DNA from: a virus
DNA: 64,000 nucleotides
Direction: 5' to 3' (one strand)
Virus record (IMG/VR): IMGVR_UViG_3300042197_002147
Coordinates: 64,001 to 128,000 of that record
This document shows, one piece after another, positions 7,292 through 55,088 of the stretch. The translations under genes and the position numbers were made by a program. The notes below the pieces were generated by a model. The model searched no databases and had not been told where the DNA came from. It saw only the letters and a program-made list of their open reading frames with translations. Position 1 is the stretch's first letter. Every line of letters begins with the position of its first letter.

Positions 7292-7316
7292 AATTTTTAA
7301 AGTGGAGATTTATATT

Positions 7317-8156
7317 ATGGAAAAAATGCAAGCTATTGGTGCCCCGTTTCCGATTGAATACTCATCCTGTTCGGATATAAAACCAAAATTATTCGAATGG
7401 ACGGAAAATAATTGTGATATAAAAGTTTTTATTGATGGTGCAATAGCACAAAATTTAAATTACAAGAAAAAAACAAACGAAAAGAAAATTGCGTGGGTTT
7501 GTGAATCCAGAGCAATATTTCATTCGTGGATGTTTCCAGAAGATCTATGGGAAAAAAATATCCAAAGAATTTCAAATTCTTTTGATACAATATATGTTTC
7601 TGATCGTCGGTGGTGCAAATATGCAGATAATATAAAGTTTGCATTTGCTGGTAGTAATGTTCCGTGGACAAAAGACAAAAAAGTTCATCATAAAACTAAA
7701 TCTACATCAATGATTGCTTCTCCAAAAATTATAACATTTGGACATAAGTTAAGACATGCGATAGCAACAAAACACGCCGATAAAATTGATGTATTTGGTG
7801 GAGCAAATGGTTCTAAAAGATTTGGAGATGGTGTTTGGCCAAACAAAGCAGAAGCAATGAATGATTATATGTTTTCGGTTGCAATCGAAAATGATAGTTA
7901 TACCACATATTTTACAGAAAAAATAACAGATTGTTTTGCTAGCGGAACAGTGCCAATTTATTGGGGAACTCCTGATATTGGTAACTACTTTGACAAAGAT
8001 GGTATCATAGAACTAACTCCAGATTTTGATTTTTCTTCATTGACAGCAGATCTTTATCAAAGTAAAATTTCAGCAATTAAAAATAATTTTGAAAAAGTAA
8101 TGACTATGGAACTTGCAGACGATGTTTTATTTAAATTAATTACCAATGAAAACTGA
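7317..8156 (+). CDS. Glycosyltransferase, GT10 (fucosyltransferase)-like
   Basis: YMFSVAIEND...YFTEKITDCFASGTVPIYWG motif. Confidence 0.8.
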   Translation: MEKMQAIGAPFPIEYSSCSDIKPKLFEWTENNCDIKVFIDGAIAQNLNYKKKTNEKKIAWVCESRAIFHSWMFPEDLWEKNIQRISNSFDTIYVSDRRWCKYADNIKFAFAGSNVPWTKDKKVHHKTKSTSMIASPKIITFGHKLRHAIATKHADKIDVFGGANGSKRFGDGVWPNKAEAMNDYMFSVAIENDSYTTYFTEKITDCFASGTVPIYWGTPDIGNYFDKDGIIELTPDFDFSSLTADLYQSKISAIKNNFEKVMTMELADDVLFKLITNEN

Positions 8157-8817
8157 AATTATTTCATTTTATTGTGATATAGATGGTTCAACATACTATA
8201 GTGATAATGCATCTCGTATTATCAATGAATGCGTTGACCTCAAGATACCATTTGATTTTAGAAAAATAAATTCACATGGTGATTATAGATTAAATTGCTT
8301 GCGAAAACCAAAATTTATACTAAGTGTTTTAGAGGAAAAAAAGAAACCAATAGTTTGGTTAGATATTGACTCTAAATTACACAAGACACTTGATGTTTTT
8401 GATAAGTTTGCGGAAATGAATGTTGATCTTGGTTTTGCATATTATGAAACTCAAAAAGAAAAAATAAATGTATTGCAACCAAAAGCATCACCCATATTTT
8501 GCAACTATAACGAAAAAGTAATTAACTTTTTAAAAACATGGTTGAATAAATGCGAAGAAACATTAAAATCTGAGGAGAGATTCTTTGATCATGAAATTTT
8601 AATGTTTAGAGTTTTACCTTTTTTTGTTAATCAACTTAAAATTGGATGTTTACCTTTGGCTTATTGTGTTTGGCCTGGTAGATGTCCCGTTGAAATAGAT
8701 CCATATATAACAATGGGTATTGCTGATGGGAAGTCAAAAGAAAAAAATATTCGTGAATTGGCCAAAAAAATTGGCATGAATGAAGATGGAATTTTATTGA
8801 ATTTGAACAGGATTTAA
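8146..8817 (+). CDS. Nucleotide-diphospho-sugar transferase-like (GT-A)
   Basis: KPKFIL...IVWLDID (DxD) and FFDHEIL motifs. Confidence 0.65.
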   Translation: MKTEIISFYCDIDGSTYYSDNASRIINECVDLKIPFDFRKINSHGDYRLNCLRKPKFILSVLEEKKKPIVWLDIDSKLHKTLDVFDKFAEMNVDLGFAYYETQKEKINVLQPKASPIFCNYNEKVINFLKTWLNKCEETLKSEERFFDHEILMFRVLPFFVNQLKIGCLPLAYCVWPGRCPVEIDPYITMGIADGKSKEKNIRELAKKIGMNEDGILLNLNRI

Positions 8818-8820
8818 AAT

Positions 8821-10380
8821 ATGAAAGCAATTATACAAAATGGAAACTATTTTTCAGATGAAATGAATTTTGATTTTCCATGTGAAGTTCATTTTACCAG
8901 ATTTGGTTTAAATTGGCATAGAGGGAAACCATTAAGAATAGCAAAAAGAGATGAAAGAAGAAACCAAGCACAAATAGATTTTGAGAACAATAATTCTTTT
9001 AAAATTTTTGTTTGTTCAAATGAACCTAGCTCATCTATGGCTAGAGAATTAAATGATGTAATAATTGATAACGCACACCAATATGATTTAATTCTTACAT
9101 GGGAATCAAATATAATTGAAAATACAGATAACTCTGTATTTTTTCCATATGGTGGAACATGGTTAAATAAAAAACAAAATTCACACGAAGACTCTCTTGG
9201 GTCGTTTGATGAATCTATTTTAGAAAAAGTTAAAAATAAAAAATTTGGAACTACTTTTTTAACTACGCATTTAATGTTTAAAGAAGGTTATGAAATTAGA
9301 AAAAAAATATGGAATTCTAGAGATAGCATACAAATTCCAACAAAATTTTATTCAAGTTCTAGAATGCCGACAAATGATGCAACTTCATATGACACAAAAA
9401 ACAAATATCTTTTTTCCAATACAGTACATGATGGTTTTTTGGAAAACGATGACAAAATAAATTTATTTGATCACCAATTTAATATCACCGTAGAGAGCAG
9501 CAAAGAAAATTCTTATTTTACTGAAAAACTAATAGATCCTCTGTTAACTAAAACTGTTCCAATTTATTGGGGTTGTGATAATTTAGATGAATTTTTTGAT
9601 ATAAGGGGAATAATAACTTTCAAAACATATGAAGAATTTTTGGAAAAAATTAATAAAATTGACGAAAATACCTATGAATCAATGAAACCATATATTGAAA
9701 AAAATTATAAATTAGCTCAAGAATATGGTAAATCATATTTTTCAAGAATAGAAAAAGAAATTGAAAGGCAGTATGATTTTTATTTTAATAAGAAAGATAT
9801 TCTATGGACAATAGGAATACTTACTGTCCCGGAAAGAAAAGATAAATTGAAAAACTTGTTAGAAAAAATTAATACAACTATTCCTTATTCTTTTAAACAC
9901 AGAATTGAAATTCTAATAAATGAGGATGAAAAAGAAAAAAGTGTCGGTGCAAAAAGAAATGAAGTATTATTGAAAGCAAATGGAAAATATGTTTCATTTA
10001 TAGATGACGACGATATGATCTCAAGTACTTATATTCCAAAAATTTGTAGAAAATTGGATAAAAATTTATATGATGGTATTGGATTTTGGGGTCTATATTA
10101 TGTAAATGAACAACCAACAATGTTTTTTAATCACGCTCAAAAAAATAATGGTCATTATAAAGATAGAACTGGTAAACAATACAGACCATTAAATCATTTA
10201 AATCCAGTTAAAACCGAAATAGCAAAACAAATAATGTATCCAGAAAAAAATTATGGAGAAGATTCTGATTATTGTGACAAATTACTATATTCTGGTTTAA
10301 TTAAGAGTGAATATAATTTTGAAGAAGTTATGTATCATTATTTGTGGTCCCAAGAATTAACTTTAACGCAAAAAGGATAA
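8821..10380 (+). CDS. Two-domain glycosyltransferase (GT10-like + GT2-like fusion)
   Basis: N-domain FNITVES...YFTEKLID...VPIYWG; C-domain GAKRN...YVSFIDDDD...GEDSD. Confidence 0.8.
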   Translation: MKAIIQNGNYFSDEMNFDFPCEVHFTRFGLNWHRGKPLRIAKRDERRNQAQIDFENNNSFKIFVCSNEPSSSMARELNDVIIDNAHQYDLILTWESNIIENTDNSVFFPYGGTWLNKKQNSHEDSLGSFDESILEKVKNKKFGTTFLTTHLMFKEGYEIRKKIWNSRDSIQIPTKFYSSSRMPTNDATSYDTKNKYLFSNTVHDGFLENDDKINLFDHQFNITVESSKENSYFTEKLIDPLLTKTVPIYWGCDNLDEFFDIRGIITFKTYEEFLEKINKIDENTYESMKPYIEKNYKLAQEYGKSYFSRIEKEIERQYDFYFNKKDILWTIGILTVPERKDKLKNLLEKINTTIPYSFKHRIEILINEDEKEKSVGAKRNEVLLKANGKYVSFIDDDDMISSTYIPKICRKLDKNLYDGIGFWGLYYVNEQPTMFFNHAQKNNGHYKDRTGKQYRPLNHLNPVKTEIAKQIMYPEKNYGEDSDYCDKLLYSGLIKSEYNFEEVMYHYLWSQELTLTQKG

Positions 10381-10385
10381 AATTT

Positions 10386-11060
10386 ATGACAATAGTATAT
10401 AAAGAAAAAAACGGTTATGATGTTATTTCGAGAGATGTTGAAGAAAATTTTCACAAGTATATAAATAAAAACAAAGATGATATAAAAACTATTGTCATAG
10501 TTGGTGGTTATCATTGTTGGGAAGCGCAAAAGTATTTACAATTGTATAAAAATGCTAAAATTTACATATTTGAACCAGTCAGAGAATTTTTTAACATAGT
10601 AAAACAACAATATGGATTAAATCCAAGATGTGAATTACATAATTTGGCAATAACAAGTATAACCGGAGAAATTGATTTTTATAGAACATCTTCTCCGGGT
10701 TCGGATTCAATATATCCAGTAATAGAAAATAATAATAGTGGTTATTCCTTTAAGAGTGTGCAAAAAATAAAAGTAAAATCAGACAAATTATCAAATATTG
10801 TCAAAGAAAATATAGATCTACTAAGTATTGATGTTCAGGGGGCAGAGTTGGAAGTACTTAAAGGAACAAATTTAGAAAATGTTTCTTGTATTTTTGCAGA
10901 AATACAAATGTCACAAAATAAAAATAATCAAGTTTATGATGGTCAATGTTTTTCTGATGATTTAAAAAATTACTTATCCGAAAAATTTGATTTACATTCT
11001 TTAGGTTTGGACAATGAATTAAATAATGGAACTGGTAATAGTTTTTGGATTAAAAAATAA
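10386..11060 (+). CDS. FkbM-family methyltransferase
   Basis: IYIFEP, NLAI, IDLLSIDVQGAELEVLKG. Confidence 0.85.
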   Translation: MTIVYKEKNGYDVISRDVEENFHKYINKNKDDIKTIVIVGGYHCWEAQKYLQLYKNAKIYIFEPVREFFNIVKQQYGLNPRCELHNLAITSITGEIDFYRTSSPGSDSIYPVIENNNSGYSFKSVQKIKVKSDKLSNIVKENIDLLSIDVQGAELEVLKGTNLENVSCIFAEIQMSQNKNNQVYDGQCFSDDLKNYLSEKFDLHSLGLDNELNNGTGNSFWIKK

Positions 11061-11732
11061 ATGAATAAACTTGCTGTAATAGTTCCCTATAGGAATAGAA
11101 AATCTCATTTAGATCAATTTATTCCATATATGAATGATTATTTATTTAAAAATATTGGCAATAATTTTTATATTGTTGTTGTTGAACAATTAAATAAAAA
11201 TTTATTCAATAGAGGAACTTTAATAAACATTGGTTTTGAATTAGAAAAAAACAATTGCGATTATATTTCTCCCCACGATGTTGATTTATTACCAGAAGAT
11301 GCAGATTATTCCATACCAACAATTCCAATTCATTTAGCTGCTTATAGATCACAAAAAAATTATATATTAGAATATGAAAACTTTTTTGGAGGAGTTAATT
11401 TATTTTTAAATGAACATTTTTTAAAAATAAACGGATTTTCTAATTTTTATGCAGGATATGGTGCAGAAGATGATGATTTGCGTCATAGATGTGTTGTTTC
11501 TGGTTTAAGTCCGCAAAGAAGATTTGCAAGATATACATCTTTACACCATGAACCAGTTTCTTCTGCAACAAAAGAAAATGAAACTCTTTGGTTCGATATT
11601 CAAAGAGGAAGCATGAATACCACAATGAATTTTGATGGTCTTTCTACGATAAAGTACAAAACAGTAAAAAAAGAAACTAAAGATTTTGTGCATTATTATG
11701 TTGATTTTGAAAACGAAAGATATACAAAATGA
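11061..11732 (+). CDS. GT7 (beta-1,4-galactosyltransferase-like) glycosyltransferase
   Basis: LAVIVPYRNR, FNRGTLINIG, HDVDLLP, FFGGV, INGFSN...GYGAEDDD. Confidence 0.9.
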   Translation: MNKLAVIVPYRNRKSHLDQFIPYMNDYLFKNIGNNFYIVVVEQLNKNLFNRGTLINIGFELEKNNCDYISPHDVDLLPEDADYSIPTIPIHLAAYRSQKNYILEYENFFGGVNLFLNEHFLKINGFSNFYAGYGAEDDDLRHRCVVSGLSPQRRFARYTSLHHEPVSSATKENETLWFDIQRGSMNTTMNFDGLSTIKYKTVKKETKDFVHYYVDFENERYTK

Positions 11733-12556
11733 GTGATAAAATTTGTGTTTTAGTTGTAAGCCATAATTTTCCAGAACTGACAGATTCTTTGTGTGATTCG
11801 ATAGTTTCAAGAACAAAAAATATAGACTATGATCTACATGTAGTAGAAACTGGTTCAGAGATTACAAATTGTTCAAAATATGCAACTATGTGGGTTAAAG
11901 ATGGTTGTAGAATGACTAGAGGATTTAATCTTTTAAAGCAATACGCAGATGCAGTAAATAAATACAATAATAAAAAAGAATATTCTGCATATATGTTATT
12001 TGTAAATGACGCAAAATTTATAGATGACAAAGATTTAATTTCTATTCTTTACGAGGAAATGAAAAATAAACCAGATTGTGGTCAAATACATCCCTATCAG
12101 AGTAATATTTATTTTCCTCATATGAGACTGGGAAAACTTTCAGAAGATTTAACAAGAAAAGAAAGTTTTTCTGAAATAGTATGTCCCATGATATCAGCAA
12201 AGGCATGGAATGTATGTGGTGAAAATTTTTTAGATAATAGGTTTTATTATGGATGGGGACTAGATTATGATATGCCATATCAGTTACATTTGAATGGTTT
12301 TCGTACTTATATAACAGATAAAGTTGGTATTTTTCATGATCCATTTACATCTTATAAAAATAAAGAAAAAACAAAAGAAAAATTAAATGTAAACGAATTT
12401 GCAAATATAGCAAGAAATAACATGCATCAAGGTTTTTGCGAAAAATATGGGAATAATTGGATGCAAAGTTTAATGGATGGAGTCCCAAATGATGTTTCTA
12501 AAGAAAGTTTGTATTTGTGGTTACACCACAATGATGGATATAATGGTAACAAATAA
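11729..12556 (+). CDS. GT2-like glycosyltransferase
   Basis: VVETGS, FVNDA, FLDNRFYYGWGLDYD pattern; island context. Confidence 0.7.
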   Translation: MSDKICVLVVSHNFPELTDSLCDSIVSRTKNIDYDLHVVETGSEITNCSKYATMWVKDGCRMTRGFNLLKQYADAVNKYNNKKEYSAYMLFVNDAKFIDDKDLISILYEEMKNKPDCGQIHPYQSNIYFPHMRLGKLSEDLTRKESFSEIVCPMISAKAWNVCGENFLDNRFYYGWGLDYDMPYQLHLNGFRTYITDKVGIFHDPFTSYKNKEKTKEKLNVNEFANIARNNMHQGFCEKYGNNWMQSLMDGVPNDVSKESLYLWLHHNDGYNGNK

Positions 12557-13170
12557 TGAAAAATAATATTATTTTTGATTTAGATGGAGTTTTAGTCGAT
12601 GCATGTGACTGGCACTATGAGTCTTTAAATAGAGCTTTAGTTGAATACAATAAAAAACCAATTTCTAGGGAAGATCATTATAAAACTTTTAATGGTTTAC
12701 CTACAAAAATCAAATTGGAAATGCTAAAAATAGACAAAAAAGAAGCAGAAGAAATAAATCGTCTAAAACAAAAACACACTTTAGATGTAATTGAAAATTT
12801 TGGTAAAGTAATGGAAGAAAAAATAGAACTACATAGGTTTTTAAAGCAAAATAATTTTCAAATATCTTGTGTTACAAATTCAATAAAGGAAACAGCATTA
12901 AAAATGCTTAAAATTACTGGTCAATATGATTATATTGATTTATTGGTTACAAACGAAAATGTAAAAAGAAACAAACCACATCCAGATTGTTACATATATG
13001 CAATGGAGATTATGAAAACTACTCCAAATGATGTTTTTTGTGTAGAGGATTCTGATATTGGAGTAAAATCTGCAATGAATGCAAATATTAAAAATTTATT
13101 AATTGTTAAAAATACAAAAGAAGTTAATTTCGAAAGTATTAAAAAATTTATAAATGGAGTTAAACAATGA
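12556..13170 (+). CDS. HAD-family phosphatase
   Basis: FDLDGVLVD, VTNS, KPHPD, VEDS motifs. Confidence 0.9.
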   Translation: MKNNIIFDLDGVLVDACDWHYESLNRALVEYNKKPISREDHYKTFNGLPTKIKLEMLKIDKKEAEEINRLKQKHTLDVIENFGKVMEEKIELHRFLKQNNFQISCVTNSIKETALKMLKITGQYDYIDLLVTNENVKRNKPHPDCYIYAMEIMKTTPNDVFCVEDSDIGVKSAMNANIKNLLIVKNTKEVNFESIKKFINGVKQ

Positions 13171-13883
13171 ATATATTAATACCAATGGCCGGCGAAGGCA
13201 GTAGATTTGCAAAAGAAGGTTATACCTTTCCAAAACCTTTAATTGATGTTTCCGGTAAACCAATGATTCAACAAGTGGTTGAAAACTTAAAATTTGATGC
13301 TAAGTACATTTTTTTGGCAAGAAAAGAGCATTTAGAAAAATATAAAGGTCTTTATTCAACTTTAGATAGAATTACTAATGGAAATTTTGAAATAATTGAA
13401 GTAAATTCTTTAACAGAAGGTGCTGCATGTACCGCTTTGTTGGCTAAACAATTTATTAACAATGAAGAAGATTTATTAATTGCAAATTCAGATCAAATTA
13501 TAGAATATTCTTCCTTAAATTTCAGTTATTTAAAAACTTTTTCTTCAGTAGATGGCATAGTTTTTTGTTTTAATGCGGTTCATCCAAAATGGTCTTTTGT
13601 TGAATTAGATTCTTTTGGGATAGTAACTAAAGTTGCAGAAAAAAATCCAATTTCAAATATAGCAACTTGTGGAATTTATTGGTATCGTAGGGGATCTGAT
13701 TTTGTTTCATGTGCTGAAGAAATGATACAAAAAAATATAAGAGTCAATAATGAATTTTATATTGCACCAGTATACAATGAATTAATAACTAAAAATAAAA
13801 AATTAATTCCATTCTATGTAAACAAAATGTATGGAATAGGAACTCCGGAAGACTTAAACTATTATTTGAAAGTTAAAGAATGA
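13167..13883 (+). CDS. Sugar-phosphate nucleotidyltransferase (NTP_transferase family)
   Basis: IPMAGEGSRF...PKPLI, TEGAACT, VAEK, GTPEDL. Confidence 0.88.
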   Translation: MNILIPMAGEGSRFAKEGYTFPKPLIDVSGKPMIQQVVENLKFDAKYIFLARKEHLEKYKGLYSTLDRITNGNFEIIEVNSLTEGAACTALLAKQFINNEEDLLIANSDQIIEYSSLNFSYLKTFSSVDGIVFCFNAVHPKWSFVELDSFGIVTKVAEKNPISNIATCGIYWYRRGSDFVSCAEEMIQKNIRVNNEFYIAPVYNELITKNKKLIPFYVNKMYGIGTPEDLNYYLKVKE

Positions 13884-14668
13884 AAGATTTAACAATTGCA
13901 ATACCTTTGGGAGTTTCTACGCCAGGAACTCCTGTATTGAGACATCTTAAAAAATGTGTAGATTCTATTAAGAATCAAAAAACAAATTATTCTTATGATA
14001 TTATGTTTGCATGTGATGAGAATGTTTCAGAAGAAATAAAAAATTATTTAGAATCTACTAATTGCTTTATTAAATGGTATGATCCATTTTATTTTTTCAG
14101 AAAAGGTAGTATATGGAAAAAAATATTTGATCAATGGGTTAATAGTGATTCAAAATATATTGCATTTTGTCACTATGATGATATTTGGCATGAAAATAAA
14201 ATACAAACTCAAATTTCTTTCATGGAAAATAATAATTATGATTTGTCTTGGTCTTCAGTTTATGTAATAAACGAAGAGGATTCTGTAGTTTCTAGTGATG
14301 CTGCTTGTTACACAGAATTGAATAAGCACACAATAACACAACCACAATCATACGCTTTTTCTCATTCTTCTATGATGAATAAAGATAAATTCTTAAAAAC
14401 AGGTATAATGGATGTATTGAATGAATCCTCTAGAATTTACGAAGAAGTTCATTTTGTTTTTTGTCACAAATTAGTAGGTAAAAAAAGTAATGATTCTATC
14501 TTCTACCATAGAAATCATTCGAATAGTATTAGTAGTAATTTTAATAAAGATAGTGAAATAATAAATTCACAAAGAAAATTAACAAATTATTCCTTAGAAG
14601 AAGAATATGAAGATGCAAAAAAAATAAACATTAAAAAAATAATTACAGAAATACAAACTACTTTATGA
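13880..14668 (+). CDS. GT2-family glycosyltransferase
   Basis: CVDSIKNQ, YIAFCHYDDIW...KIQTQ, YHRNH. Confidence 0.75.
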   Translation: MKDLTIAIPLGVSTPGTPVLRHLKKCVDSIKNQKTNYSYDIMFACDENVSEEIKNYLESTNCFIKWYDPFYFFRKGSIWKKIFDQWVNSDSKYIAFCHYDDIWHENKIQTQISFMENNNYDLSWSSVYVINEEDSVVSSDAACYTELNKHTITQPQSYAFSHSSMMNKDKFLKTGIMDVLNESSRIYEEVHFVFCHKLVGKKSNDSIFYHRNHSNSISSNFNKDSEIINSQRKLTNYSLEEEYEDAKKINIKKIITEIQTTL

Positions 14669-15111
14669 AAATTATTTCGCATAGAGGAAATCTTTCTGGT
14701 ATAGATTTAAATAGAGAAAATAAAAAATGGGCAATTAATGAATGTTTACTATTAAATTTTGATGTAGAAGTAGATATTCATTATCATAAAAATCAAATTT
14801 TTCTTGGTCACGATTTACCAGAAGAAAAAATTGATATTGAATATTTAATAAAAAATAAAAACAAACTATGGTTACACTTAAAAAATATAGATTCTGTTTG
14901 CTTTTTCCTAAAAAATAAAATAAAATTTAATTGGTTTTGGCATCAAAAAGATGATTTAACTTTAACTAGTTTTGGTATACCGTGGTGTTATCCAGATAAA
15001 TATATTGAATGTGGAGTAACTGTAGTCAAAAATATTAAAAAAGAAATACCAAAAGTTTATGGTATTTGTACAGATTATCCTTTAGAATGGAGAAAATATA
15101 ATGAGTTCTGA
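14665..15111 (+). CDS. PLC-like/GDPD-like phosphodiesterase
   Basis: ISHRGN...EN...FDVEVDI...LGHD...WLHLKN...GICTDY. Confidence 0.8.
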   Translation: MKIISHRGNLSGIDLNRENKKWAINECLLLNFDVEVDIHYHKNQIFLGHDLPEEKIDIEYLIKNKNKLWLHLKNIDSVCFFLKNKIKFNWFWHQKDDLTLTSFGIPWCYPDKYIECGVTVVKNIKKEIPKVYGICTDYPLEWRKYNEF

Positions 15112-15724
15112 TGTCACAAAAACCTTTAGAAATAGTCATGGTGGTTATTCACAGCAAACAGAAGATTTAGAATTGCAAAAAATACTACCAAAATCTGGTT
15201 ATTTTCTTGAAATTGGTTCATATTGTCCTTACACCTTTTCAAACACTAGATTTTTAGTAGAAAGGGGGTGGAAGGGGTGTTATGTTGATGGTTGCTCGTA
15301 TGCTATTAGCAGATTCATTGATGTATATAAGGACAATAATGATATTTCAATAGTTCATGCACTTATTGGAGATAAAGATGATTTTGTTGAGTTTTATAAT
15401 AGCATAGCCGACGCTGTTTCTACAACAGATCAAAATTTTATGAATATGTGGAAATCTGGTGGCCACGCATTTAAGAAAATGTATACATCAATGATAACTT
15501 TTAAAACTTTGCAAAAAATTTTACCACAAAATGTAGATTTTATAAACATTGATGTTGAGGGACAGTCAGCATATTTGTCAACAATAATTGATTATGATAT
15601 TTTAAATACAAAATTTGTGTGTGTAGAACATGATAATAAAATACAAGAGCTAAAAAATAATTTTGCTAATAGGGGATTTGAGCATTATTGGAATAATGAT
15701 ACAAATATAATATTTAAAAGGTAA
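15101..15724 (+). CDS. FkbM-like methyltransferase
   Basis: YSQ, FLEIG...SNT, GWKG, FINIDVEG, CVEH. Confidence 0.8.
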   Translation: MSSDVTKTFRNSHGGYSQQTEDLELQKILPKSGYFLEIGSYCPYTFSNTRFLVERGWKGCYVDGCSYAISRFIDVYKDNNDISIVHALIGDKDDFVEFYNSIADAVSTTDQNFMNMWKSGGHAFKKMYTSMITFKTLQKILPQNVDFINIDVEGQSAYLSTIIDYDILNTKFVCVEHDNKIQELKNNFANRGFEHYWNNDTNIIFKR

Positions 15725-15729
15725 TTTCA

Positions 15730-16380
15730 ATGAAAACTTTAGTTTATGTTGGGGCAAATGCTGGCTACGGTTTATATAATACACTTATGAATTCTTCTAT
15801 AAGGTTTGATAAAATTTATGCATTTGAGCCAGATCCAGAAATCTACAAAATATTAAAAGAAAATTTTAAAAATTTTTTAAATATTAATACTATAAATGCT
15901 GGATGTTCAGATCAATCGGGGACTAAAACTCTGTATGTAACAGAAAATAGAGTTTCTAGTTCTCTTGCAGATGTGAACATGAATAATCAAAATGAAGTCG
16001 GTGGTCATTCTGGGGGTAAACCAGCTTTTAAACAAGTAGATGTCAATATAATTAATCTTTACGATTTCTGTGAACAAAATAATATAAAAGAAATAGATTT
16101 ACTAGTAACAGATTGTCAGGGAAGTGATTATACTATATTAAAAACTATGGAACCTTTATTAAAGGAAAGAAAAATAAAAAATCTATTTTGCGAAACACAT
16201 AGAGATGGGTTTGAAATTTATAATGGATTGGATAATTCTTTTTCTAAATTCAAAGAATTATTAAATGAAAACTATGAAATAGATTTTTTTATGGCAGACA
16301 TTAATTATGTTGATAAAAACAATACAGAAGAATTGTTCAAACATATAGAATGGGACACCATGTGGAAACTTAAGTCATAA
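15730..16380 (+). CDS. FkbM-family methyltransferase
   Basis: YVGANAG, YAFEPDP, IDLLVTDCQGSD. Confidence 0.85.
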   Translation: MKTLVYVGANAGYGLYNTLMNSSIRFDKIYAFEPDPEIYKILKENFKNFLNINTINAGCSDQSGTKTLYVTENRVSSSLADVNMNNQNEVGGHSGGKPAFKQVDVNIINLYDFCEQNNIKEIDLLVTDCQGSDYTILKTMEPLLKERKIKNLFCETHRDGFEIYNGLDNSFSKFKELLNENYEIDFFMADINYVDKNNTEELFKHIEWDTMWKLKS

Positions 16381-43577: not shown

Positions 43578-44138
43578 ATGATTATTGCAGGAATTGATTA
43601 TAGTTTAAATGGACCGGCAATTTGTGTAGCCAATACGGATAAATCTTTTTGTTTTGATAATTGTTCTTTTTATTTTCTAACAGATGTAAAAAGAAATGCA
43701 AAAACATTTTTAACAAACATCCATGGCGAAGCATTTGAAGACTACAATGAAGATTGTGAGAGATACGACACATTATCCGATTGGGTGATGCGCGTTTGTT
43801 CTGGTTGCGAACAGATAGCACTTGAGGGTTACGCTTATGGAGCACAGGGTAGGGTGTTTCATATAGCAGAAAATACTGGTTTATTGAAGTATAAAATTTA
43901 TCAAACAAGAACACCATTGACAATTATCCCACCAACAGAAGTCAAAAAATATGCAACCGGCAAAGGAAATTCCGATAAGCAAAAAATGTATAGTTCTTTT
44001 GTTTTGGATACAAATATTTTTCTAAACACAATAATGACACCGGACAAGAAAGAAATTTCAAGTCCGGTGTCAGATATTGTAGATTCTTTTTATATTTGTA
44101 AGATACTTTATAACAAAATTTTAGACTCTTCTTCTTGA
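43578..44138 (+). CDS. RuvC-like Holliday junction resolvase
   Basis: IAGIDYS, IALEGY, PTEVKKYATGKGNSDK, DIVDS; CATAAATA at 43565-72. Confidence 0.85.
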   Translation: MIIAGIDYSLNGPAICVANTDKSFCFDNCSFYFLTDVKRNAKTFLTNIHGEAFEDYNEDCERYDTLSDWVMRVCSGCEQIALEGYAYGAQGRVFHIAENTGLLKYKIYQTRTPLTIIPPTEVKKYATGKGNSDKQKMYSSFVLDTNIFLNTIMTPDKKEISSPVSDIVDSFYICKILYNKILDSSS

Positions 44139-44750
44139 ACTCACTAAAGAAGCAATCGCAAGTAAACCTATAGCACCGGGTGAGGGTATTGCATTGACAC
44201 CAAATCCACAAAAATCAATGAGATTACCCTGTGTGGTTCCACCAGTTGCACTTACTGCTTCGAATGCAAATCTTGTCATATTTCCAATCGAAACTATTGA
44301 ACCAGTATGAAACTGCCATGCAGTCTCGTCTGCACTGAATGTATTTTGATATAGGATTGTGTCATCCCCTCCACCATAGGTCTGATCTGTTCCCAAATCT
44401 ATGATTGAAAGTTGCATAACATCAACACCATATCTTCCTCTGTGTGCAAAATGCCAATTTATTGTATTATTGTCACCCAACCCATTTACATGTTGGTAAA
44501 GTGTAGATGCATAATTTGCATTTAGTTCTGCAAAAGAATTGCCTTCATATGCGGGTGTTCCTAAAAATCCATCAGACCATATTTCTAATGTATTGTCTGG
44601 TGCAGTTGTTGCCCAATTTAGTGTTGGATCTGAACCAGAATAGAAACCATAACCCCAAACAGTAAAATCCTCAAAACCACCATTAACTAGATCTGCCGAG
44701 CATGTTGTAGATAGACTGATAGCCAGCAAAAGTGGTAACTTGTTCATCAA
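44121..44750 (-). CDS. PEP-CTERM-type (PAPG-variant) exosortase-substrate surface protein
   Basis: Signal peptide, DLVNGGFE beta-sandwich start, C-terminal IPSPGAIGLLAIASLVSSRRRV. Confidence 0.85.
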   Translation of the reverse strand: MMNKLPLLLAISLSTTCSADLVNGGFEDFTVWGYGFYSGSDPTLNWATTAPDNTLEIWSDGFLGTPAYEGNSFAELNANYASTLYQHVNGLGDNNTINWHFAHRGRYGVDVMQLSIIDLGTDQTYGGGDDTILYQNTFSADETAWQFHTGSIVSIGNMTRFAFEAVSATGGTTQGNLIDFCGFGVNAIPSPGAIGLLAIASLVSSRRRV

Positions 44751-45466
44751 ACTCTCTTTCTTGTTGAAAATAGTTGCGGAATCGCAAACAATGTCAATGT
44801 ACCAACCGATGGTACATTGTTTTGTGGTAAGTAGAATCCAGTTTCTATGCCGTAATATTCCCCGAACCCATAGTTTGTTCCTAGAGCAATGGTCGTAGAG
44901 TATTCGTCAAATGGCAATGCACTTGGCGTAAAGAAAAATGTATGCATGTCTGGGTTGACTGCTTGAATAGCGGGTACAAAATCTTGAGGCACTATATTTT
45001 TTGTAATCAATTGTGCAGGATTTATTTTAACTTGTTGTGTTTCTTCTACAAGTGTTGGTTCTTGCGGTTTTATTTCATCTTTAAATCTTGCAACTTCGTC
45101 CTCAAGACGATATGGCCTTGTTTCCTCTTTTTGATCAATTTTCTTTTTTGGAATATAAGCAAATTGTAATTTTTGAAAAGGAGCAAGTGCTTGTTTATTT
45201 TTTTCTTCTGCTTTTTCTTCTTCTTTTGTTTCTTCTAATTGTGTTTTTTGTAACTCTTTTGCAGAAGAAACTACAGAACCAAATGAAGAAATGTAAGAAG
45301 CAGCATTCTTTATTATTTGTTCGCCGGCCAATGTTAAAGAAACACTCATTACTATTGTCATAGTATGCAGTGATTTCTCTAATTGTTTTACTTTTTGTTT
45401 TGCGTCGTCACATGCCTTTGCACATGTTGTACAACCGCTGTGTTTTTGTTCCGATACTTTAGCCAT
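44747..45466 (-). CDS. Membrane protein with degenerate PEP-CTERM-like tail
   Basis: N-terminal CxxCxxxC + coiled coil + hydrophobic segment; C-terminal VPSVGTLTLFAIPQLFSTRKRV; strong AAGGGGAGGA RBS. Confidence 0.6.
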   Translation of the reverse strand: MAKVSEQKHSGCTTCAKACDDAKQKVKQLEKSLHTMTIVMSVSLTLAGEQIIKNAASYISSFGSVVSSAKELQKTQLEETKEEEKAEEKNKQALAPFQKLQFAYIPKKKIDQKEETRPYRLEDEVARFKDEIKPQEPTLVEETQQVKINPAQLITKNIVPQDFVPAIQAVNPDMHTFFFTPSALPFDEYSTTIALGTNYGFGEYYGIETGFYLPQNNVPSVGTLTLFAIPQLFSTRKRV

Positions 45467-45508
45467 GTCATCCTCCCCTTAAAGATGAACATAACGAAGA
45501 TTACTATA

Positions 45509-45835
45509 TTATGTATTTAATTGTTCTGGTTTGTTTGGTTTATTTTGAGTTGAATCGTCAATTCCATCACCATCTCTGTCTTTTTCATCTTTGATTAGAC
45601 CATCTTCACAAATCATTGGTTTTCGGATGAATTCTCTCCAAGCCCAAAGCAATGATATTAAAACAACAGGAGCATACCAAAGAGTCCATCCATAGGATGG
45701 TTTGGAAGCACCTTCTTGTGCAATTTCATCTTTAATTGCCATGAGAACAACATTGTCACTGGTATTATCTGGTACTATAAATGGAGTTGTGCATCCTGCT
45801 AGTAATAAAAGTGGTATATATTTTAAGTATTTCAT
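45509..45835 (-). CDS. Lipoprotein with an additional TM helix
   Basis: Lipobox LLLAGC; TM WTLWYAPVVLISLLWAW; DRDGDGID loop. Confidence 0.7.
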   Translation of the reverse strand: MKYLKYIPLLLLAGCTTPFIVPDNTSDNVVLMAIKDEIAQEGASKPSYGWTLWYAPVVLISLLWAWREFIRKPMICEDGLIKDEKDRDGDGIDDSTQNKPNKPEQLNT

Positions 45836-45844
45836 TGGTACTCC

Positions 45845-46291
45845 TTATGATTTGCTTGGCGTTGCTGCTGCTGTACCGAAATAGAATCCTACTATGCTTA
45901 ACAATATTTCTCTATTTTCGGATGACCAGAAAAATCCATTTATTTCAACGAAACTTTTTCTAGCAGTTTCTGGTATCAAACCAAATAATCCTTCTGGATT
46001 TTTTACATCAACCTCAACGAAGGTAGGAACACCAAAGAAAGGAAGGATAAATGGAGCAGCAAATGCACCAAATAAGACTGTAAGAACTATAATTTGTCTT
46101 ACAAATTTACCGGCATCAATACTTACTCTCTGGACTGCTTTATCTTGGTTTTCTGTTGTTTGTTGGTTTGCTTTGATCAATTGCTCGAACATTTGCTTTT
46201 GATCTGCACTTTTTTGTGCCATGAATTTGAACAAAAATCCAGTGACACCTCCTCCAACCATGCTAATTAATTCTGGTGAAAACATATTCAA
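45845..46291 (-). CDS. Holin-like multi-TM membrane protein
   Basis: Hydrophobic segments; C-terminal ILLSIVGFYFG motif typical of 3-TM holin-like proteins. Confidence 0.6.
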   Translation of the reverse strand: MNMFSPELISMVGGGVTGFLFKFMAQKSADQKQMFEQLIKANQQTTENQDKAVQRVSIDAGKFVRQIIVLTVLFGAFAAPFILPFFGVPTFVEVDVKNPEGLFGLIPETARKSFVEINGFFWSSENREILLSIVGFYFGTAAATPSKS

Positions 46292-49491: not shown

Positions 49492-49499
49492 TATTTATA
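49492..49499 (-). promoter_or_regulatory. T4-type late promoter
   Basis: TATAAATA on the - strand upstream of ATG 49474. Confidence 0.65.
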
Positions 49500-52143: not shown

Positions 52144-55062
52144 TCACTTCTTAGACCTGTTATGACTCTTGCTTACAACTCTAAGATTTTTCATTGAGTT
52201 GTTGTTTGGATTGCCGTCTTTGTGGTCAACATCTCGGCCATCTCCCTTACGAATACGCCCCAAGCGTTTCATAAGACGGTTTACTTTGTTTCTTTTTGCT
52301 CTATTCTTTTTTTGTTTTTCTGTTCCTTGATAATTATCATATTCTTTTCTGTAATTTCTTTTCTCTGCTACAAAGTTTTTTGCAAAGGAAATATAGAACT
52401 CTTGTAAATTCTTTTCTACTGGAATTTCGTGTTCTGTATTTCCAATTTTTACTGTGTTGTAGAAACCAGATTCTACTTTACCAAATTGAGTAAAGTCTAT
52501 GTCTTGTGTGGAAATCATTTCTGGTTCAAGTTCTAAAAATTGCATCAAAGAGTAAATGTCTCCACCTATTTCATTTTGAATTCCGTCCAGTAATTGTGAT
52601 GTTTCTATGGAACTTATTACATTTTCTGTTATTAAACCAGACAACACTGGATTATGAGAAAATGATTCCTTTGCTATTTTCTTGGGATTCAGAACCATTG
52701 ATATTACACTCCAGTATGAGTAAACTTTTCTTCCGGTTTTTCTTCTTATTGCTTCTGCTTCAGATGATTTAACAGAACTGCTCTTAAATCTTATGACAAA
52801 ATTTAAAGCATCTGCAACTTTATCTGCATACTCTGGTGTTATTTGTGATAATGATGTTTCTGTTCCATCCTTGTTCAATGAAAGAACATACTGAGCAACA
52901 GCGGGACTAATTTTTTTCGGATTTCCTGTATCGAATTTTGCCATTCCGGTAAGTGCTTCAAATACAAATGCTTTTCGGAAATCTTTACTTTGAACGAGTA
53001 GATCTTGTAATTCTTTTCTTGCTTCTTTGTGTAGTTTGTCATATTTAATAATTTCTTTGTCTTGTCCTTCCAATTCACCACCAGTAAGGAAATCCGTTAT
53101 GTCTCCTCCTGCGGTTCTTCTTGGAGAATTGATCAAATTCTTTAATGATTTAATTAGCGATTCTGCTCTTTTCTTTATTTTTGGTTCTAATTTTTTCTTA
53201 TCCATTCCTTCAAGAGCAGCATAAATTGTTGCGGTTGCCTCGCCTCCTGCTTTACCGGACATCAACTGAGATGGTCCGCATTTTACGGAGACACCGACAA
53301 CTTGACCAGAGTTCATGTCTCTGAACAATATGTCAGACTTTGGAGTATTATCAACTCCTCCATAGTTGGTCCAGAACTTACTTAATTTTTCTGATTTATT
53401 TGCACCATAATGAATTGCAGCAAAATTTGCTCCGGGATAACTTGTAGAGAGTTGTTCTGAAATTGCTTGTAAAGTTCTTTGGGAAGATTCACCCAAAGTT
53501 GTGCTATTTGCCAAATATTCTGCTGCTTCCGGGGAAATAAGTCCCTCTTTGACTTGTTTTTCTAGAGGAATGCCCATTGCCTCGTTGAATGCGGCAACAA
53601 CACCGAATTCCATGTCAACCGCGGCGTGATCTGAGTCTGGGTAAGTAGATTTACCAGTAGATCTTGTTGGTGGTGGTTTTTGTGGAACCATTGCTGCCTG
53701 AACGGCTTGATCTTTTTGCGTTTCTTGTGCTTCTGCTTTTTTATTTCTTTTTTCTTTTCCAGAATCAGCACCTTCTACTTTACCGAACAACTCAATAGAT
53801 GTTGGTGTGTTTACAAAGTCTTCATCCTGTAAAATTTGCTCTGCTGCACTTTGTGTCATCTTGTCTGGTGGGACCAATATTCTATGGTTTGCTTGCAGAG
53901 ATGTTTTTCTTATTATCATTTTGTTTTCATCATCATCCTGAACAATCAAAACTTGACCAGAGAAAGGATTTGATTGTCTAACTGCATCATCTTTTGCTCT
54001 TTGTTTTCTTTTTCTTGCATTTTGATCTCTTCTTTTTTCTTGTTGAGATTTTTGTTCAATTAACATTTTAAAAGCATGAAAAAGTGGACTTTCTCTAAGT
54101 GGTGTTTTTCTGTTCATTTGTGCAAGTCTTTTTGATTCACCAGAAACGACTTTCGGTAAAATTTGTTTTACCATTCTTGTTAGGATTGGTCTTCTTTTGT
54201 TTATTGCTGTGTCGATTCTTGCTCTTTGAGCATATGATAACTTTTTCCAATTTCCCTTAAACAGTCTTTTTCTGAGAGTTGTTTTTATTTGACTTGTTGC
54301 TCTTTTCTTGAGTTGTTTGATATTTCTTCTTCTCTTTTTTCTTAACTTTCTCAGAAATGCTCTTCTTTTTGCTGTTCTTCTTGCAGACCTTGCAAGTTTC
54401 ATTCTTCCCTGTGCCGAAACAGTTTCAGTCAAAACTTCTTGATTGTTTGCAAATTCTTGAATTTCTTCAAATGTAAATGAAGGAAGAGAAACATAATCTT
54501 CCTTAAGTTTCATTCCTTTTCTTACATCTTTGAATAATTTTGTTGCTTGTGTTTTTGTGACATGACCGGGTAATCCCATCCTAAATGCCTCAAAATTTCC
54601 CTCAGCAGCAGCTTTTCTTTGCTTTGTTGCAGACATTCCAGCAAGACCTTTTGCTTGCTCTCCTCTTTCTCCTCCAGCAGTTACTACCTTAAAATTTTTG
54701 AATTTGAAATCACCTTTTTTCTGGTAGTGCGGAACTTTATCGAATATAGATTCTCTGTCAGAACCAGTGACTACTGTAACATCTTCATATCCTTGATCAC
54801 TAACATGTTTTAAAGCATGAAATGGTGATATGATATCATCCGAAACATGAACATTCGGTGTCCCAAGAACAGATGCCATGTGCTTTGCTTTTGTTTTTGG
54901 ATCTAATGGATTTTTCTTTGGATCTTGACTTCTGCTACCATAAATTCTGTGTTCAGAACCAGTTTGTGAAGCTAATTCCATAACTTTCTGAGCAAGCAGA
55001 TGATGACCAGATGTTGGTGGGTTGAATCTTCCAAATGTTATTACAATTGATTTTTTTGCCAT
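52144..55062 (-). CDS. Polyprotein: HxGH nucleotidyltransferase + basic linker + PD-(D/E)xK-like nuclease + C-terminal HNH
   Basis: FGRFNPPTSGH, GSDR, MSATKQR; TPKSDIL...VSVK..SQLMSG; DVDHKDGNPNNN..NLRVVSKSHNR. Confidence 0.75.
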   Translation of the reverse strand: MAKKSIVITFGRFNPPTSGHHLLAQKVMELASQTGSEHRIYGSRSQDPKKNPLDPKTKAKHMASVLGTPNVHVSDDIISPFHALKHVSDQGYEDVTVVTGSDRESIFDKVPHYQKKGDFKFKNFKVVTAGGERGEQAKGLAGMSATKQRKAAAEGNFEAFRMGLPGHVTKTQATKLFKDVRKGMKLKEDYVSLPSFTFEEIQEFANNQEVLTETVSAQGRMKLARSARRTAKRRAFLRKLRKKRRRNIKQLKKRATSQIKTTLRKRLFKGNWKKLSYAQRARIDTAINKRRPILTRMVKQILPKVVSGESKRLAQMNRKTPLRESPLFHAFKMLIEQKSQQEKRRDQNARKRKQRAKDDAVRQSNPFSGQVLIVQDDDENKMIIRKTSLQANHRILVPPDKMTQSAAEQILQDEDFVNTPTSIELFGKVEGADSGKEKRNKKAEAQETQKDQAVQAAMVPQKPPPTRSTGKSTYPDSDHAAVDMEFGVVAAFNEAMGIPLEKQVKEGLISPEAAEYLANSTTLGESSQRTLQAISEQLSTSYPGANFAAIHYGANKSEKLSKFWTNYGGVDNTPKSDILFRDMNSGQVVGVSVKCGPSQLMSGKAGGEATATIYAALEGMDKKKLEPKIKKRAESLIKSLKNLINSPRRTAGGDITDFLTGGELEGQDKEIIKYDKLHKEARKELQDLLVQSKDFRKAFVFEALTGMAKFDTGNPKKISPAVAQYVLSLNKDGTETSLSQITPEYADKVADALNFVIRFKSSSVKSSEAEAIRRKTGRKVYSYWSVISMVLNPKKIAKESFSHNPVLSGLITENVISSIETSQLLDGIQNEIGGDIYSLMQFLELEPEMISTQDIDFTQFGKVESGFYNTVKIGNTEHEIPVEKNLQEFYISFAKNFVAEKRNYRKEYDNYQGTEKQKKNRAKRNKVNRLMKRLGRIRKGDGRDVDHKDGNPNNNSMKNLRVVSKSHNRSKK

Positions 55063-55080
55063 ATTCACATTCCTGTATCA

Positions 55081-55088
55081 TATTTATA
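55081..55088 (-). promoter_or_regulatory. T4-type late promoter
   Basis: TATAAATA on the - strand upstream of the polyprotein. Confidence 0.7.

Follow-up and report, generated by a model that had tools for sequence, protein, structure and literature searches.

Two overlapping genes with matching C-terminal tails

The stretch analysed here (the window, 64,000 nucleotides) comprises bases 64001-128000 of the 156.7-kb linear IMG/VR virus record IMGVR_UViG_3300042197_002147, which has an estimated completeness of ~70% and a guanine-plus-cytosine (GC) content of 36%. The record belongs to an uncultured phage from water that, judged from its genes, is T4-like, as an earlier reading of the window (the initial annotation) had proposed: a fragment of a gp43-type DNA polymerase shares 44-46% identity with the polymerases of cyanomyoviruses and marine single-cell viruses. 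A long block of minus-strand genes, towards which a RuvC-like gene converges from the other strand, ends at its 3' side with the two genes considered here, p2 (44747-45466, minus strand; 239 amino acids from an ATG start) and p1 (44121-44747, minus strand; 208 amino acids counted from ATG, as in the database copy P0003, or 209 from a TTG one codon upstream, as in the list of open reading frames (ORFs)). A strong Shine-Dalgarno-like sequence, AAGGGGAGGA (45471-45480, minus strand), stands 4 nt upstream of the p2 ATG, and the stop codon of p2 overlaps the start codon of p1 as TGATG with 1 nt in common, which couples the two genes.

Both products end, at the extreme C-terminus, in a Pro-containing motif followed by a hydrophobic helix and a basic cluster. 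The p1 tail (IPSPGAIGLLAIASLVSSRRRV; 44124-44189, minus strand) consists of the motif P-S-P-G, the helix GAIGLLAIASLVSS and RRRV, and aligns column by column with the IPEPSS...RRR tails of cellular relatives. The p2 tail (VPSVGTLTLFAIPQLFSTRKRV; 44750-44815, minus strand) consists of P-S-V-G, the helix GTLTLFAIPQLFST and RKRV; it was delimited by alignment and is matched within its own genome by a tail profile with an E-value of 3e-11, the p2 tail being itself a row in that profile's alignment. When ORFs of at least 60 amino acids were filtered for a Pro followed by 14 uncharged residues and a tribasic cluster at the C-terminus, p1 and p2 alone, adjacent to one another, passed among the 458 ORFs of the whole record, so that the coupled tailed genes reported in the initial annotation were borne out.

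p1 is predicted to be a Sec-exported, single-domain beta-sandwich protein of the carbohydrate-binding type. Alignment of homologues places its signal peptide at residues 1-18 (44694-44747, minus strand), with the cleavage context TCSA/DLVNGGFE, and A-x-A/DLVNGGFE is conserved throughout the homologues (the slash marks the cleavage site). Residues 19-185 (44193-44693, minus strand) form a beta-sandwich like those of carbohydrate-binding module (CBM) families 4, 16, 22 and 61, as judged from a structure model, Foldseek and alignment, and the signal peptide and LVNGGFE beta-sandwich start that had been read from the sequence were thereby upheld. The AlphaFold model, built from a 34-sequence alignment, shows a confident beta-sandwich between the signal helix and the tail helix (predicted local distance difference test (pLDDT) 84, predicted template modelling score (pTM) 0.78). 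Foldseek matched it to CBM4-2, CBM16, CBM22, CBM61 and a porphyran-binding CBM (E 3e-6 to 7e-5, target TM-score 0.6-0.72), and HpiC1-type cyclases matched the model as well as the CBMs did. The fold is the same as in CBM4, CBM16, CBM22 and CBM61 (PDB 2y6k, 2zex, 4xun, 2xom), with an identity of only 13-18%, and in Pfam p1 matched neither CBM_4_9 nor DUF642 nor any other CBM; more generally, scans of p1, p2 and the isolated tails against Pfam, NCBIfam and PHROGs gave nothing useful. The invariant motifs of the domain are NGxFE, AELNA, NWxFAHRGR and TQGNxxD.

p2 is built of an N-terminal Cys motif (H-x2-C-x2-C-x3-C), a long helix (residues 13-78) with a weakly hydrophobic segment at 36-52 (MTIVMSVSLTLAG), a middle part that is disordered and charged in the window and variable, charged or low-complexity in homologues, a conserved block (TPSxLPFDxYSTT..GxNYGFGEYYG) and the tail, which in homologues follows the pattern P-x-[PAS]-[GS]-T-[LI]-x-V-F-A...R-K-R. 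An N-terminal signal peptide is absent from p2, and in its AlphaFold model, poor as a whole (pLDDT 52), only the helix at 13-78 is well modelled. Because the C-terminal cluster is positive, the likeliest topology would have the N-terminus inside, followed by the hydrophobic segment, an exported middle, the tail helix and a C-terminus that is again inside. Homologues are few (nine in a large database, plus the copies in related loci), and tblastn of p2 against 50,697 phage records gave no match. Two further features of p2 were observed. Residues 1-22 (45400-45466, minus strand), with a conserved H-x(1-3)-C-x2-C-x3-C ahead of the long helix and hydrophobic segment, recall the layout of membrane-spanning zinc-binding anti-sigma factors, an identity for which Pfam gave no supporting match. 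In addition, the codons for the p2 tail contain, ~45 nt ahead of the start of p1, an inverted repeat (CAATGTACCA..TGGTACATTG; 44795-44819) whose 10-bp arms match perfectly around a 5-nt loop; it could modulate coupled translation of p1 or be due to chance.

Descent of p1 from bacterial exosortase cargo

More than 260 close homologues of p1 were found, all of ~210 amino acids, 55-85% identical and metagenomic nearly throughout. The survey of viral databases suggested in the initial annotation recovered 39 IMG/VR contigs with a p1 homologue, up to 150 kb long, and a scan with the tail profile found 1-4 tailed ORFs per related phage record and exactly two in this phage, far below the median of 8 PEP-CTERM proteins per bacterial genome (PMC1569441). 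Among 185,579 species-representative genomes, p1 occurred in one, on a 9.5-kb contig (carrying locus L001) of a river Bacteroidota metagenome-assembled genome (MAG); this contig is probably a mis-binned phage fragment, because the MAG contains neither an exosortase nor any other such tail. No cultured phage was found to carry p1, as tblastn against the same 50,697 phage records returned only four fragmentary 'Listeria phage LM' records. These records ('Listeria phage LM 4-14-1 / 4-11-1'; OR848176, OR846815, OR846807, OR848137) are 12-17 kb long and unannotated, and match the p1 domain at 30% identity across 80% of p1. Such a match would not be expected of Listeria phages, and the records may be environmental contigs that were submitted under this name.

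A search of 1.84 billion representative proteins with a p1-family profile gave 2835 relatives, 199 of them at E 1e-30 or better. Many of these carry the p1 domain inside giant proteins of 1000-5420 amino acids (among P0132-P0280), while standalone cellular relatives of ~200-250 amino acids (typically ~230) have the same architecture as p1 and matched the profile at E 1e-40 to 1e-58. The C-termini of the standalone relatives are mostly of the form VPEPS...RRR, with PEP in 22 of 55 and PVP, PTP or IPTL in others; when ten were scanned, four passed the curated cut-off of the PEP-CTERM model TIGR02595 (16 bits) and one passed IPTL-CTERM at 42 bits. In a full-length alignment the phage I-P-S-P-G lies directly beneath the cellular I-P-E-P-S, and the motifs NGxFE, GWxTT, AExNA, FxHRxRxGxD and GNFxD are common to phage p1 and the cellular proteins.

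In a quick maximum-likelihood tree, rooted only at its midpoint, the 41 sampled phage p1 sequences formed one clade among the cellular ones (Shimodaira-Hasegawa-like approximate likelihood ratio test (SH-aLRT) support of 100), and an IMG/VR homologue with a canonical IPEPGS tail (L040) grouped with the cellular sequences. The nearest neighbours of p1 in the ESM Atlas were its own viral cluster, then clusters annotated as PEP-CTERM with DUF642 or CBM_4_9, the latter two families being present in 16-43% of the members of these neighbour clusters. p1 clearly descends from bacterial PEP-CTERM cargo, and on the strength of the full-length alignment, the profile relatives, the tree and the Atlas neighbours its tail is judged homologous to PEP-CTERM, not merely similar.

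Among known proteins the closest in layout are bacterial standalone 'NGxFE...GNFxD' beta-sandwich proteins of ~200-250 amino acids (P0139, P0141, P0148, P0219), which have the same length and order of parts as p1, carry PEP-CTERM or IPTL-CTERM tails and are related to choice-of-anchor C (TIGR04362), DUF642 and CBM_4_9. Compared to these, the phage branch is a tight separate clade with 55-85% internal identity and a Glu-less tail, and is nearly absent from cellular genomes. The relationship of p1 to the choice-of-anchor C domain is distant at best: window p1 did not match TIGR04362 (cut-off 120 bits), for which cellular relatives scored 14-24 bits and the L040 homologue 16.8. A stretch of the MARTX_Nterm model (~1460-1590) was also weakly matched by 17 of 34 phage p1 homologues, far below threshold (best E 8e-7; 22.7 bits for one member vs a cut-off of 700); this is a shared adhesin-type module and not evidence of a toxin.

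A glutamate-free variant of the sorting signal

PEP-CTERM/exosortase sorting is already known (PMC1569441; PMC12188702; PMC9850573), and PEP-CTERM proteins have been tied to interaction of the cell surface with polysaccharide and to exosortase-dependent export (PMC1569441, PMC12188702). With this system (EpsH, XrtA/B, cyanoexosortase; TIGR02595, PF07589; CrtB of Nostoc) the phage proteins share a tripartite signal at the extreme C-terminus with a ~14-residue helix, the signal peptide of p1, the use of one tail on several unrelated cargo families, and a p1 domain homologous to that of bona fide PEP-CTERM proteins. They differ in the replaced Glu of the phage tails, in window tails that score below every curated model, in a p2 without a signal peptide, and in their carrier, a lytic-type T4-like phage in which no exosortase was found. 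The label 'PEP-CTERM-like' given in the initial annotation fits p1 by descent, and fits the tail as one found on unrelated proteins, and departs from the canonical type in the missing Glu and in p2.

The third tailed family, p3 (~226 amino acids; L018:10665-11345 and L011:13184-13864, both minus strand), occurs in related phages and is absent from the genome of this one; its members have a signal peptide, an LDNF motif and the tail VPAP[SG]ALALLGLAG..RRRR. The p1, p2 and p3 tails align without gaps, with an invariant Pro 16-18 residues ahead of the basic cluster, and conservation of the tail extends over more than 120 homologues of p1 and more than 15 of p2. In 120 phage representatives of the p1 family the tail motif is [IV]-P-x-P-G, followed by the hydrophobic helix and an RRR cluster; the first Pro is conserved in all 120, the second in 112 and the Gly in 105, and 16-18 residues separate the first dibasic pair from the Pro in 105/120. 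The middle residue of P-x-P is A in 65, G in 18, S in 14, T in 11, C in 6 and E in 1. Some p3 homologues are labelled 'MYXO-CTERM' by the Joint Genome Institute (JGI), a family with an invariant Cys inside the sorting motif (10.1101/2023.06.07.544157); this assignment was rejected for the p1, p2 and p3 tails, which have no conserved Cys, and the scores obtained were 12.8-14.5 against a cut-off of 20 (TIGR03901).

It is very hard to reconcile this conservation with the notion that the likeness of the tails is a coincidence of two hydrophobic C-termini, or that p1 and/or p2 are structural components of the virion. The genes do lie in a minus-strand block with late-type TATAAATA boxes upstream, but a cleavable signal peptide combined with a C-terminal membrane helix is not the architecture of a virion protein, no structural family in PHROGs was matched, and a tail kept across so many p1 and p2 homologues is carried by only these two of the ORFs in the record.

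Sorting signals are classically recognized by the presence of one tail on cargo families that are otherwise unrelated, and the fixed Pro, the P-x-P-G and the spacing exceed the constraint expected on a plain anchor. We tentatively favour, as a working interpretation short of a firm conclusion, that p1 and p2 are envelope-directed phage proteins with a phage-specific PEP-CTERM derivative that would be sorted by a host exosortase and would mask receptors.

Several results weigh against this interpretation. The initial annotation had named scoring with sorting-signal hidden Markov models (HMMs) as the first check on the tails, and here its expectation failed for the window copies: p1, p2 and the isolated tails matched no Pfam or NCBIfam sorting-signal HMM, even at E-values up to 10, and a six-frame scan of the phage's own genome with such models gave no match. 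The near-invariant Glu of Pro-Glu-Pro is absent, and its position varies freely among A, G, S, T and C. p2, with no signal peptide and with a hydrophobic segment before the tail, is unlike classical cargo (PMC1569441). No exosortase was found in the window, as initially reported, or in the whole record (TIGR02602), or in 20 related, partial phage records (PF09721), and the sole MAG with a p1 gene is the Bacteroidota assembly described above, which has none. Finally, the related phages and loci span 36-60% GC, so that many different hosts would all need a compatible enzyme.

How the loss of Glu is read depends on the tree. Since the phage sequences form one clade, the loss appears from their phylogeny to be one inherited event and not the product of repeated selection, which also counts against our interpretation; what is informative is the contrast between P..PG, spacing and basic cluster, all of which were held fixed, and the former Glu position, which drifted among small residues. 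The single PEPG sequence (P0006), 81% identical to window p1, looks like a reversion, because it is nested beside the window copy in the tree. Weak TIGR02595 matches were found in 8 of 34 relatives: P0006 (17.3 bits), P0116 with a VPAPG tail (18.5) and the L040 homologue (19.0) pass the cut-off, and P0034 (12.8) and p3 (14.1) fall below it.

The same observations bear on a second explanation, which we regard as quite possible, if doubtful, namely that the tail is a relic that now acts only as an uncleaved inner-membrane anchor (a helix with a positive-inside cluster) and needs no host exosortase. p1 and p2 would then remain in the inner membrane, exposed to the periplasm, where they might exclude superinfecting phage or serve as periplasmic sensors; T4 membrane proteins of the Imm/Sp type offer an analogy. 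This would account for the loss of Glu in 119/120 sequences and the failure of the window tails with HMMs, makes the 36-60% GC span easier to explain, and agrees with a Bacteroidota MAG that holds the gene and has neither an exosortase nor native substrates; moreover, the second hydrophobic segment of p2 would keep that protein anchored anyway. A plain anchor, however, would not require an invariant Pro, a retained P-x-P-G and a fixed spacing over three unrelated families, and some PAPG tails still pass TIGR02595. A cellular protein that shares with p3 nothing but an identical VPAPGALALLGLAG-RRRR tail also argues against it: its ESM Atlas neighbours are Planctomycetota-dominated clusters only, one of which carries PF07589 in 55% of its members, and its position among PEP-CTERM-bearing clusters suggests that PAPG tails can be native exosortase signals.

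Gene neighbourhood, host and possible role in infection

Upstream of p2 lie two syntenic partners, lipo108 (45509-45835, minus strand), with the lipobox LLLAGC and a second hydrophobic segment, and mem148 (45845-46291, minus strand; phrog_38283), a membrane protein with three hydrophobic segments that is 67-90% identical across related phages of 36-60% GC. Judging by its sequence, mem148 cannot be an exosortase-type enzyme, because it has no Cys or His. Pfam gave only domains of unknown function (DUFs) for the neighbouring genes, and no family was found for mem148 or lipo108 beyond phrog_38283. The order mem148 - lipo108 - p2 - p1, then converging RuvC and ribonucleotide reductase (RNR) genes, recurs in many related loci; p2 is immediately upstream of p1 in ~20 of the 39 IMG/VR loci, and several loci have p1 alone, or p1 ahead of mem148/lipo108.

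This conserved order, together with four products that are all predicted to be membrane-bound or exported, would also suit a block for lysis or its control (holin, spanin or antiholin-like), in which the tails would be ordinary transmembrane domains. lipo108 has a lipobox and a second hydrophobic segment, and p2, in which a single hydrophobic segment separates a short cytoplasmic N-terminus from a large exported region, loosely resembles T4 holin T in layout. We nevertheless consider a lysis function improbable, since Pfam and PHROGs gave no holin, spanin or endolysin match for any of the four proteins, the identity of mem148 among phages is unusually high for a holin, p1 is clearly homologous to bacterial surface cargo and not to lysis proteins, and the loci in which p1 lacks p2 or has another order relative to mem148/lipo108 would not be expected of such a block.

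Going upstream on the coding strand, the first exact match to a T4-type late-promoter box is TATAAATA (49492-49499, minus strand), a candidate start of a late unit ending in p2-p1. A weaker box, ATTAAATA, lies ~50 nt upstream of p2 in the window, and NNTAAATA is found upstream of p2 in 7 of 12 related loci. Late expression of p2-p1 is no more than plausible from these signals, a box directly upstream of p2 being weakly indicated. Elsewhere in the window, a 974-amino-acid protein (52144-55068, minus strand) combines an N-terminal cytidylyltransferase-like part with a C-terminal HNH endonuclease motif, and has a TATAAATA box at 55081-55088 directly ahead of its gene. Other phage genes seen include tail-fibre genes, a DnaB-like helicase, a class II RNR and a RuvC-like gene, along with six tRNAs; psbA was not found in the phage, which is thus not obviously a cyanophage.

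Returning to sorting by a host exosortase, the architecture, homology and conservation described above are observed, and from export onwards we infer the following course. p1 would be exported by Sec, after which the proteins would be retained by their tails on the periplasmic side of the inner membrane. A P-x-P-G-accepting enzyme of the host's exosortase family would then recognize the tail, and at least p1 would be passed on to the outer surface or the polysaccharide layer. Late in infection its lectin-like domain may bind a host glycan, and this binding could mask receptors and so exclude superinfecting phage or keep progeny off debris; p2 would be a membrane-tethered, mostly disordered helper.

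Small phage-encoded envelope proteins that change what the infected cell presents to other phages include T5 Llp and T4 Imm/Sp. Their likeness to p1 and p2 would be one of function only, by analogy, as there is no relationship in sequence or fold; they are anchored by a lipobox or a plain transmembrane helix, whereas p1 and p2 carry a PEP-CTERM-derived tail.

A glycosyltransferase (GT) island, which the initial annotation had supposed might glycosylate the displayed proteins, is real (7302-16380, plus strand; GC 26-27%, low) and includes GT10 fucosyltransferase-like, GT2 and GT7 galactosyltransferase-like genes, two FkbM methyltransferases, a HAD hydrolase and a nucleoside triphosphate (NTP)-transferase; no link between it and p1 or p2 was found, the island being ~30 kb away and on the other strand.

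As to the host, MAG labels on contigs bearing homologues conflict (Alphaproteobacteria, Bacteroidota and, for a tail-only match, Limnohabitans), and for the Planctomycetota host of the initial annotation there is one weak lead, the Atlas neighbours of the cellular protein with the VPAPGALALLGLAG tail. Phycisphaerae genomes are high in GC, and the 36% GC of this phage argues against a Phycisphaerae host, as an unusually large GC gap would be implied. Cellular proteins with PAPG tails (P0323, P0324) were not found in IMG/VR, and our search of the literature on PEP-CTERM with Phycisphaerae or Limnohabitans found nothing on the PAPG variant.

On a further, unlikely reading, the tail with [IV]-P-x-P-G and no Glu would be an address tag adapted to phage use: either an unsampled host group (perhaps freshwater Planctomycetota) has an exosortase subtype for which it is the native signal, or it is a pseudo-substrate that occupies or redirects the host exosortase. 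If it were the native signal of freshwater Planctomycetota, it would provide the first host link for a large T4-like clade; if it were a pseudo-substrate, the phage would rewire the sorting of surface and exopolysaccharide (EPS) proteins during infection.

In a limited literature check on PEP-CTERM and phage, we found no description of phage-borne PEP-CTERM cargo of the p1/p2 kind; a Dehalococcoides mobile element with virus-like features is described as carrying a PEP-CTERM domain. Exosortase sorting is widespread in environmental Gram-negative bacteria, and its recognition rules have barely been tested. By retaining P-x-P-G, the helix and the basic cluster, but not the Glu, on cargo from three unrelated families, the phage clade offers a natural experiment in what the signal requires. 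The tailed proteins also represent a candidate means for lytic phages to equip the host envelope with a lectin-like protein, embedded in it or at its surface, and the tail variant could serve as a host marker for abundant uncultured freshwater T4-like phages.

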